DNA from: Escherichia coli
GTDB lineage: Bacteria; Pseudomonadota; Gammaproteobacteria; Enterobacterales; Enterobacteriaceae
Strand: one strand, 5' to 3'
Assembly: GCF_003334315.1 (NCBI RefSeq)
Contig: NZ_QOWR01000034.1
DNA length: 49,379 nucleotides
Made by a program: the position numbers and the translations under genes. The notes beneath the pieces were generated by a model. The model made no database searches and was not told the DNA's origin. It saw only the letters and a list, made by a program, of their open reading frames with translations. Each line of letters starts with the position of its first letter. Within the stretch, counting starts at the first letter, position 1. Positions 3,815 through 35,564 of this stretch are shown piece after piece.

Positions 3815-3912
3815 GCCTGATGCGCTATGCTTATCAGGCCTACATAGTCCCTGCAATATATTGAATTAGCAAGGTTTTGTAGGCCGGATAAGGCGTTCAC
3901 GCCGCATCCGGC
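3815..3912. repeat. BIME: two inverted REP elements between convergent torZ and cmoB
   Basis: GCCTGATGCGCTATGCTTATCAGGCCTACA (3815-3843) and GTAGGCCGGATAAGGCGTTCACGCCGCATCCGGC (3879-3912) match the REP consensus. Confidence 0.8.
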
Positions 3913-12090: not shown

Positions 12091-12295
12091 GTTGTCATTC
12101 CATTGAAATAGATACAAATATACGTAATAGCATAAAAAATTTATTTTTTCAGGAGGCGCAATGTATATTTTTATTACGCATTTCTTCACTGAATATGTAA
12201 TATTAAAATATTTGCTTCCAATATAACCTGTAGAATAAATTATACTGTGCCATTTTTCAGTTCATCGAGACACCTCGCAAGTTTTCTTCATCCTT

Positions 12296-12315
12296 CGCTG
12301 GATATCTATCCAGCA
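12296..12315 (+). promoter_or_regulatory. LexA operator (SOS box) of ruvAB
   Basis: CGCTGGATATCTATCCAGCA dyad about 50 nt upstream of ruvA; matches the recalled ruvA SOS box. Confidence 0.65.
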
Positions 12316-12364
12316 TTTTTTTATCATACAGCATTATCTTTGATTCATTACGCAGGAGCGTCAT

Positions 12365-13999: not shown

Positions 14000-14320
14000 G
14001 ATTGGTCGCTCGCGCCGCATCCGAAATTGGCAGTGTGCCTGATGCGACGCTATTCGCGTCTTATCCGGCCTACCAGAGATAGCGAACCGTAGCTCGGATA
14101 AGGCGCTCGCGACGCATCCGACATTGGCAGTGTGCCTGATGCGACGCTATTCGCGTCTTATCCGGCCTACGAGAGATAGCGAACCGTAGGTCAGATAAGG
14201 CGCTCGCACCGCATCCGACATTGGCAGTGTGCCTGATGCGACGCTGTTCGCGTCTTATCAGGCCAGCCAGAGATAGCGAACCGTAGGTCGGATAAGGCGC
14301 TCGCGCCGCATCCGACAAAT
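14000..14320. repeat. Tandem BIME cluster: three 97-bp units made of alternating REP palindromes
   Basis: GCATCCGA recurs at 14017, 14114, 14211 and 14308 (exact 97-bp period); each unit holds GCCTGATGCGACGCT...GCGTCTTATC(C/A)GGCC and CGGATAAGGCGCTCGCG REP motifs. Confidence 0.85.
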
Positions 14321-25778: not shown

Positions 25779-26420
25779 ATGAAAAACTGGAAAACAAGTG
25801 CAGAATCAATCCTGACCACCGGCCCGGTTGTACCGGTTATCGTGGTAAAAAAACTGGAACACGCAGTGCCGATGGCAAAAGCGTTGGTTGCTGGTGGGGT
25901 GCGCGTTCTGGAAGTGACTCTGCGTACCGAGTGTGCAGTTGATGCTATCCGTGCTATCGCCAAAGAAGTGCCTGAAGCGATTGTGGGTGCTGGTACGGTG
26001 CTGAATCCACAGCAGCTGGCAGAAGTCACTGAAGCGGGTGCACAGTTCGCAATTAGCCCGGGTCTGACCGAGCCGCTGCTGAAAGCTGCTACCGAAGGGA
26101 CTATTCCTCTGATTCCGGGGATCAGCACTGTTTCCGAACTGATGCTGGGTATGGACTACGGTTTGAAAGAGTTCAAATTCTTCCCGGCTGAAGCTAACGG
26201 CGGCGTGAAAGCCCTGCAGGCGATCGCGGGTCCGTTCTCCCAGGTCCGTTTCTGCCCGACGGGTGGTATTTCTCCGGCTAACTACCGTGACTACCTGGCG
26301 CTGAAAAGCGTGCTGTGCATCGGTGGTTCCTGGCTGGTTCCGGCAGATGCGCTGGAAGCGGGCGATTACGACCGCATTACTAAGCTGGCGCGTGAAGCTA
26401 TAGAAGGCGCTAAGCTGTAA
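25779..26420 (+). CDS. eda: KHG/KDPG aldolase
   Basis: 213-aa ORF; matches recalled Eda. Confidence 0.97.
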
Positions 26421-26426
26421 AAGTCA

Positions 26427-26455
26427 AAATGCCCGATCGAGGATCGGGCATTTTT
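26427..26455. terminator. Bidirectional terminator between convergent eda and purT
   Basis: AAAATGCCCGATC, GAG loop, GATCGGGCATTTTT. Confidence 0.85.
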
Positions 26456-26475
26456 GTAGCGTTTTTTTGCCGGGT

Positions 26476-27654
26476 TTAACCCTGTACTTTTACCTGTCCG
26501 GCGGCGTGCTTCGCGCGCTCAATGGCGTCAACAACACTCTCAGCGGTCGCCAGCGCAACACCCAGACGACGGCTGCCATCAATTTCCGGCTTACCAAATA
26601 AACGAATCTGCAAATCTGCGCCTACGGCATTCTGCACATTATCAAACGTGACATTCTGACTGGTCAGTTGTGGCAGAATAACGGCAGAAGCTGCAGGACC
26701 ATACTGACGGATCCCGCCAACCGGAAGTCCGAGGAAGGCACGTACATGCAGGGCAAACTCTGAGAGATCTTGAGAAATTAACGTCACCATCCCGGTATCA
26801 TGTGGACGAGGGGAGACCTCACTGAAAATCACCTCATCACCACAGACAAACAGCTCGACACCAAACAGACCATAACCGCCCAGTGCCAGCACCACTTTAC
26901 GGGCAATCTCCTGCGCACGTTCAAGGGCAAGCGGGCTCATTTGCTGTGGTTGCCAGGATTCACGGTAGTCGCCATCTTCCTGGCGATGACCTACCGGTGC
27001 ACAGAAATGGACGCCATCCACCGCGCTGACGGTTAGCAAGGTAATTTCGAAGTCAAACTTAACGACGCCTTCAACAATTACGCGGCCCGCTCCGGCGCGA
27101 CCGCCTTGCTGAGCGTACTTCCATGCCTGAGCAAGTTGCTCTGCAGAACGAATAAACGTCTGCCCCTTGCCGGAAGAGCTCATCACCGGTTTTACAATGC
27201 AGGGATAGCCAATGTCAGCAACCGCCTCGCGGAAAAGGCTTTCGCTATCGGCAAAACGATAAGTGGAAGTGGGCAGCTGCAGCTCTTCTGCCGCCAGGCG
27301 ACGGATACCCTCGCGATTCATCGTTAATTTCGTTGCGCGAGCGCAGGGGACAACATTCAGTCCTTCCTCTTCAAGTTGGATCAGCATATCGGTGGCAATA
27401 GCTTCGATCTCCGGCACGATATAATGTGGTTTTTCCAGTTCAACCACACGGCGTAATGCATCACCATCAAGCATATTAATGATATGGGAGCGATGCGCGA
27501 CATGCATGGCTGGTGCGTCGGCATAGCGATCGACGGCAATCACCTCTACGCCGAGACGCTGACACTCGATTGCCACTTCTTTACCCAGTTCACCGGAGCC
27601 TAATAACATCACGCGAGTTGCTGCCGGACGCAGCGCAGTGCCTAATAACGTCAT
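26476..27654 (-). CDS. purT: Formate-dependent phosphoribosylglycinamide formyltransferase (GAR transformylase 2)
   Basis: 392-aa ATP-grasp protein; PurR operator upstream. Confidence 0.95.
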
Positions 27655-27691
27655 AACGAATATCCCCTGATTAATTCCGCGCGCAGTATAA

Positions 27692-27707
27692 ACGAAAACG
27701 TTTGCGC
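27692..27707 (-). promoter_or_regulatory. PurR operator (PUR box) of purT
   Basis: Minus-strand GCGCAAACGTTTTCGT matches the PUR box consensus ACGCAAACGTTTTCNT, 38-53 nt upstream of the purT start. Confidence 0.7.
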
Positions 27708-27750
27708 GTGTCTTTATTGCTGATGTTGATTTCTCAACCGAAAAGAAATA

Positions 27751-27770
27751 TACTGTATAAAATCACAGTT
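27751..27770 (+). promoter_or_regulatory. LexA operator (SOS box) of yebG
   Basis: TACTGTATAAAATCACAGTT fits CTGT-N8-ACAG with the AT-rich centre, 18 nt upstream of the yebG ATG. Confidence 0.8.
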
Positions 27771-27787
27771 ATTATGAGAGGCTGCAA

Positions 27788-28078
27788 ATGGCGGTTGAAG
27801 TTAAATACGTAGTCATTCGTGAGGGCGAAGAGAAAATGTCGTTTACCAGCAAAAAGGAAGCCGATGCTTATGATAAAATGCTTGATACGGCGGATCTGCT
27901 TGACACCTGGCTGACAAATTCTCCAGTGCAAATGGAAGACGAGCAACGTGAAGCCCTTTCGCTATGGCTGGCAGAACAAAAAGATGTGCTGAGCACCATT
28001 CTGAAAACCGGCAAATTACCGTCCCCACAGGTCGTCGGTGCTGAATCCGAAGAGGAAGATGCCTCACACGCGGCCTGA
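27788..28078 (+). CDS. yebG: SOS-inducible protein YebG
   Basis: 96-aa ORF directly downstream of a strong LexA box; acidic C-terminus. Confidence 0.9.
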   Translation: MAVEVKYVVIREGEEKMSFTSKKEADAYDKMLDTADLLDTWLTNSPVQMEDEQREALSLWLAEQKDVLSTILKTGKLPSPQVVGAESEEEDASHAA

Positions 28079-28096
28079 AGCAACTTGCGCTCCTGA

Positions 28097-28501
<405 letters not shown>

Positions 28502-28527
28502 TGGCTTCTGATAATTCGATTGACCGT

Positions 28528-28612
28528 TGGCGGATGCGGCGCGAGTGCCTTGTCCGCCCCAGAACGCACCACAATCGTAGGCCTGAGAAGACGCAACAGC
28601 GTCGCATCGGGC
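28528..28612. repeat. Degenerate REP pair (BIME-like) in the yebF-yebE intergenic region
   Basis: GGCGGATGCGGCGCGAGTGCCTTGTCCGCC and GCCTGAGAAGACGCAACAGCGTCGCATCGGGC are both REP-like palindromes. Confidence 0.6.
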
Positions 28613-35241: not shown

Positions 35242-35328
35242 AACATTTAAGCTGATGACCACCGCGCTTTTTATTGACCATTTTGCACGCAAACTGGAAA
35301 ACCTGGCGTCGTCATCTATTCTTAAAGG

Positions 35329-35431
35329 GCAAGGCAACTAAGCCTGCATTAATGCCAACTTTTAGCGCACGGCTCTCTCCCAAGAGCCATTTCCCTGGAC
35401 CGAATACAGGAATCGTGTTCGGTCTCTTTTT
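35329..35431 (+). ncRNA. sdsR: Small regulatory RNA SdsR (RyeB), sigma-S dependent
   Basis: Recalled SdsR sequence matches (GCAAGGCAACTAAGCCTGCATTAATGCC...CGGTCTCTTTTT). A sigma-S-type -10 (TCTATTCTT, 35315-35323) sits upstream and a GC stem plus U-run ends at about 35431. Confidence 0.75.
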
Positions 35432-35564
35432 ATCTGTTAAAAGCCAGAAGCATTTCCTTCGCTGACTTTATAGTCAACCATAACACACACTCTACTGTCT
35501 GAGTCCAGCGTTTTTTAACATTCTTGTTAAGATTATGTGATCTTTAGCGCGGAGGAAAATATTG

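Follow-up and report, generated by a model that had tools for sequence, protein, structure and literature searches.

Back-to-back purT and yebG promoters of Escherichia coli with separate operators for PurR and LexA

The spacer between the divergent Escherichia coli genes purT and yebG is best read as a pair of sigma-70 promoters that stand back to back, are each controlled by a simple-repression operator of their own, and act independently of each other; the probability of this reading is estimated at about 95%. The dual operator region is real and strongly conserved, and it is already known in the literature. In this reading, PurR, loaded with hypoxanthine or guanine, binds the 16-bp PUR box located between the -35 and -10 hexamers of purT, and the bound protein keeps RNA polymerase off the purT promoter when purines are plentiful. 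At the other promoter, a LexA dimer on the 20-bp SOS box covers the -10 and start region of yebG and blocks its transcription, and RecA-stimulated self-cleavage of LexA after DNA damage frees the gene.

The window analyzed here, a stretch of 49,379 nucleotides from contig NZ_QOWR01000034.1 (assembly GCF_003334315.1), belongs to the chromosome of E. coli. Over 2.2 kb around the spacer, it matches 5426 of 5426 complete E. coli genomes, several of them at 100% identity; E. coli HS30-1 is 100% identical over positions 26400-28600, and purT is annotated there and in MG1655. The genes annotated around the spacer are purT, yebG, and yebF, with edd-eda upstream. The first-pass annotation had named the divergent pair purT and yebG, and it was right to do so, as is seen from the open reading frames and from the annotation in matching E. 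coli genomes. The spacer between them covers positions 27655-27787 (133 bp). The same annotation placed a PUR box at 27692-27707 and an SOS box at 27751-27770, within 80 bp of each other and serving the divergent genes. Both motifs, re-read from the window, have the claimed sequences and coordinates; 43 bp (27708-27750) separate them, and together they span 79 bp. The PUR box overlaps the core promoter of purT and the SOS box that of yebG, according to the promoter scan and to published hexamers (PMC3946193). The Rfam scan found no RNA family within the spacer, and no terminator-like site was detected within 27500-27950. Elsewhere in the window, the overlapping antisense sRNAs SraC/RyeA (minus strand, 175 bits) and SdsR/RyeB (plus strand, 114 bits) were found at 35291-35435, between yebY and pphA. 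An Rfam match to naRNA4 lies downstream of ruvB (14189-14264; 61 bits, just above threshold) and a match to ES036 at the end of torZ (3836-3878; 45.5 bits). The features of the purT-yebG region are collected in Table 1.

Table 1. Features of the purT-yebG region in window coordinates, with the mean column conservation calculated for compact spacers.
Feature	Position	Strand	Basis	Conservation
purT CDS, formate-dependent GAR transformylase, 392 aa	26476..27654	-	ORF; annotation in HS30-1 and MG1655	
purT -10 hexamer TATACT (predicted)	27685..27690	-	promoter scan; PMC3946193	0.98 (59 compact spacers)
PUR box (PurR operator) ACGAAAACGTTTGCGC	27692..27707	.	motif search, conservation, orthologous K-12 ChIP-chip site	0.97
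purT -35 hexamer AAGACA (read 27714-27709)	27709..27714	-	promoter scan; PMC3946193	0.85
Segment between the -35 hexamers, 11 bp, poorly conserved	27715..27725	.	alignment puts the extra 8-12 bp of four species here	0.54
yebG -35 hexamer TTGATT (predicted)	27726..27731	+	promoter scan; PMC3946193	TTGA at least 70% conserved
yebG -10 hexamer TATACT (predicted)	27749..27754	+	promoter scan; PMC3946193	
SOS box (LexA operator) TACTGTATAAAATCACAGTT	27751..27770	.	arm-pattern searches, conservation, identity to K-12; 17 bp from its end to the yebG ATG	0.89
Sequence between the operators				0.48-0.54
yebG CDS, DNA damage-inducible protein YebG, 96 aa	27788..28078	+	ORF; annotation	

The consensus scan of the spacer gave two promoter-like sites, with 0.6 expected, and their -35 hexamers stand back to back, separated by 11 bp. 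The predicted purT promoter has the form AAGACA-18-TATACT, and the PUR box takes up 16 of the 18 bp of its spacer; the predicted yebG promoter, on the plus strand, consists of TTGATT and TATACT separated by 17 bp. A genomic SELEX study conducted with RpoD holoenzyme lists for the yebG/purT spacer exactly these two hexamer pairs (PMC3946193). The exact hexamers and the transcription start sites are inferred here, the latter from the predicted -10 hexamers. With the starts placed in this way, PurR would occupy about -54 to -78 counted from the yebG start, and LexA about -73 to -92 counted from the purT start. Each operator would thus be located upstream of the core of the other promoter, from which we infer that the two switches act independently in the chromosome and that steric cross-repression is not to be expected.

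The PUR box ACGAAAACGTTTGCGC differs at two positions from the palindrome ACGCAAACGTTTGCGT and has the central CG and the arms of GCAA/TTGC type. It is the sole match with up to two mismatches in the 49-kb window, where 0.01 are expected from shuffled sequences; at three mismatches, chance alone would give 0.47 matches per window. The site resembles the PurR motifs obtained by ChIP-chip (PMC3159470), and the purT operator of K-12 MG1655 (Cho et al., 2011; Belliveau et al., 2018) is found at the same locus, 38 bp from the purT ATG. The purT promoters of MG1655 and of the window have their hexamers in common, as well as the simple-repression architecture with the operator between -35 and -10, and over the 133-bp spacer the two sequences are 99.2% identical. 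They differ, however, at position 27707, the outermost position of the operator, where the window has C and K-12 has T (ending in GCGT; K-12 site ACGAAAACGTTTGCGT). The C is one mismatch further from the PUR consensus than the K-12 T, so the published PurR binding data come from a T allele that is a slightly better operator than the C allele of the window. Only 1364 of 5408 E. coli genomes (about one quarter, an estimate made from identity bands) match the window exactly over 27660-27722, and in the sampled E. coli strains the difference over this interval was the C/T change at 27707. Across species, 61 of 80 sequences have T at this position and 19 have C. This natural polymorphism at the edge of the operator is common. 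Among six sampled E. coli strains, the variable positions cluster at 27723-27746, between the operators. In E. coli MS 21-1 (NZ_CP146670.1, locus positions 301-710), an ISL3-like element, ISEc53, is inserted inside the yebG SOS box, after TACTGTATAAAATC, and parts the yebG promoter and the left operator arm from the yebG gene.

The SOS box TACTGTATAAAATCACAGTT, compared by hand, has five mismatches to the idealized palindrome TACTGTATATATATACAGTA, most of them in its degenerate centre. Owing to this degeneracy, a search of the whole window with the idealized palindrome at up to three mismatches gave no match. The arms CTGT-N8-ACAG are perfect in this box and unique in the window, with 0.59 occurrences expected by chance, and the box has one mismatch to TACTG-N10-CAGTA, a pattern that, with one mismatch allowed, matches two sites in the window versus 0.78 expected. 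Since loose patterns of this kind are expected 0.6-0.8 times per window, the SOS motif alone is not statistically remarkable; the box is real on the grounds of its position, its conservation, and published experiments. Over its 20 bp it is identical to the LexA box of K-12 yebG, and its distance to the ATG is the same as in Salmonella yebG. A CRP site inside the box (TGTAT-AAAA-TCACA, noticed by eye) was considered and rejected, as its half-sites are spaced by 4 bp instead of 6.

The window holds a further sequence of this type, an exact copy of CGCTGGATATCTATCCAGCA at 12296-12315, which we take to be the ruvAB LexA box, and with it a second SOS-regulated operon. It is likewise a CTG-N10-CAG site upstream of an SOS operon; unlike the yebG box, it is further from the consensus arms (CTGG/CCAG) and has no partner operator of a second repressor. 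This box is located upstream of ruvA, inside the annotated small gene yobI (12258-12323), and another SOS-like site, TACTGTGCCATTTTTCAGTT, at 12243-12262 begins 53 bp upstream of the start of this box.

The position of the yebG -10 hexamer deserves separate consideration. An alternative hexamer, TAAAAT, is present at 27758-27763, 9 bp downstream of TATACT, and the SOS box overlaps both candidates. Positions T27749 and A27750 are conserved at 97% and 99%, although they are outside the 20-bp box, whereas their mirror positions 27771 and 27772 reach 75% and 51%. This asymmetry favours TATACT at 27749-27754 as the probable yebG -10. In the Sort-Seq analysis of Belliveau and co-workers, the RNA polymerase site of yebG was placed 9 bp further downstream than had been predicted computationally before (PMC6003448). 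The flanking asymmetry does not settle this 9-bp discrepancy, and TAAAAT at 27758 stays a candidate -10.

Conservation of the region was followed in a comparative set of 80 loci that takes one genome for each species with YebG. Of these, 79 have purT divergently upstream of yebG, and both operators are kept in all 79 other species that have purT inside the fetched DNA. A PUR box with no more than three mismatches is present upstream of purT in every one of the 80 sequences, with 13 of its 16 positions invariant. CTG-N10-CAG is found 14-38 bp upstream of yebG, again in 80 of 80, with invariant CTG and CAG; the SOS box varies in other species in its A/T-rich centre and in the last two positions. 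The spacer is compact in 59 loci; 58 have 128-141 bp and the other has 261 bp. These loci come from Escherichia, Citrobacter, Salmonella, Klebsiella, Raoultella, Kosakonia, Phytobacter, Superficieibacter, Cedecea, Pseudescherichia, Intestinirhabdus, Erwinia, Pantoea, and Winslowiella. Between the PUR and SOS boxes there are 41-45 bp in 54 compact loci; four others have 51-55 bp there and one has 170 bp. In 20 other loci, from Yersinia, Serratia, Chimaeribacter, and Edaphovirga (L059, L061-L062, L064-L067, L071-L074, L077-L081, L083-L085, and L087; at about 1000-2410), a gene for a 460-aa DEAD-box helicase, dbpA-like as judged by its sequence features, is present between purT and yebG. It is oriented as yebG and divergent from purT. 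The PUR box in these loci is found 56-87 bp upstream of purT, and yebG keeps its own SOS box downstream of the helicase gene, 16-38 bp upstream of its start.

Two deviating spacer types were also observed. In Klebsiella spallanzanii (upstream of position 2501 of the locus), the spacer has 261 bp versus about 135 bp, with about 127 bp of extra sequence between the operators. This sequence matches two primer sequences, which we take to be those of ERIC, with 4-5 mismatches of 22, and it is probably an element of ERIC/IRU type. The Kosakonia-type spacers (L035, L037, L038, L042, L044, L045, L047, and L048) have, in the part aligned to 27724-27746, GCGATG(N9)CATCGC, an inverted repeat that lies just upstream of the SOS box and replaces the TTGATT -35 region. 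The repeat could represent a site for a different regulator or a different promoter layout.

Both promoters have been analyzed experimentally. PurR binding and repression at purT, as well as the LexA dependence and damage induction of yebG, were shown in published work, so the control of purT by PurR and of yebG by LexA, as the first-pass annotation had it, stands (PMC3159470; PMC6003448; PMC11228462; PMC8072944). In K-12, a PurR ChIP-chip peak was detected over purT with the motif ACGAAAACGTTTGCGT, and purT was among the genes under direct repression by PurR with adenine (Cho et al., 2011; PMC3159470). Belliveau and co-workers analyzed both promoters of the spacer by Sort-Seq (Belliveau et al., 2018; PMC6003448). 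For purT, they found the -35 and -10 elements and between them a repressor site seen when adenine is present; DNA-affinity mass spectrometry showed enrichment of PurR on this site, its effect is lost in a purR deletion, and the architecture was termed simple repression. For yebG, sites for LexA and RNA polymerase and induction by mitomycin C were demonstrated. Earlier work on the yebG LexA box is cited there (Lomba et al., 1997, as cited in PMC6003448), and a heterology index of 6.3 is quoted for this box (Courcelle, 2001, as given in PMC11228462). The expression of yebG was induced 4.4-fold by AZT and showed a 9.7-fold dependence on lexA (PMC11228462). In Salmonella, a single box stands 17 bp from the yebG ATG, and nalidixic acid raises yebG expression 41-fold (PMC8072944). 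It is also worth noting that H-NS is given as a regulator for the yebG/purT spacer (PMC3946193), that a SELEX peak of RpoS holoenzyme was found in it (PMC5493296), and that purT depends on SspA (PMC11228462). PurR and LexA are, therefore, not the whole story for this spacer.

One may ask whether the two operators form a coupled unit, in which PurR occupancy or purT transcription modulates the SOS induction of yebG, or the reverse. Possible routes would be competition for RNA polymerase, transcription-induced supercoiling, or DNA bending induced by the repressors. With only 11 bp between the -35 hexamers, two polymerases must overlap in their upstream contacts, and the gap of 41-45 bp in most compact loci is maintained despite the poorly conserved sequence in between. 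However, promoter geometry explains most of this constancy, since 32 of the 43 bp are fixed hexamers and spacers and 11 bp are free. Insertions are also tolerated with both operators kept, namely 8-12 bp (four species), about 127 bp (one Klebsiella), and the dbpA-like gene (20 loci); the retention of both operators around a whole gene means that coupling is not required. The Sort-Seq windows mutagenized for each promoter span the spacer (PMC6003448), and the main text of the PurR regulon study does not mention yebG (PMC3159470). Coupling is, therefore, considered improbable. The conserved operator spacing was rejected as a sign of coupling in the main reading because of the fixed geometry and the tolerated whole-gene insertion. 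That the near-constant operator distance in Enterobacteriaceae and Erwiniaceae is itself selected, with the promoters coupled via polymerase competition or local supercoiling, is held to be equally doubtful; if it were true, purine status would tune basal or induced yebG expression, or DNA damage would tune purT.

The other possibility, that one of the motifs, or both, arose by chance and regulates nothing, draws on the loose SOS-like patterns being as frequent in the window as expected (0.59 for CTGT-N8-ACAG; 0.78 for TACTG-N10-CAGTA with one mismatch). On the contrary, chance would give a PUR box with up to two mismatches 0.01 times per window, both motifs hardly vary across the 80 sequences while their flanks do, and the published ChIP, Sort-Seq, and expression data refute this explanation, the probability of which is negligible. 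Two independently acting simple-repression promoters remain the preferred reading; in Yersiniaceae, the genes are split by the dbpA-like gene and each has its own operator, which argues for two independent switches over a coupled device.

The analysis brings little beyond confirmation, as purT and yebG have a textbook-style pair of simple-repression promoters that were already dissected at base-pair resolution. The small additions are that both operators show a clean phylogenetic footprint, that TATACT gains support as the yebG -10, and that the outermost PUR-box position has a common C/T polymorphism. The purT/yebG spacer can also be considered a positive control, showing that operators are recognizable from raw sequence.
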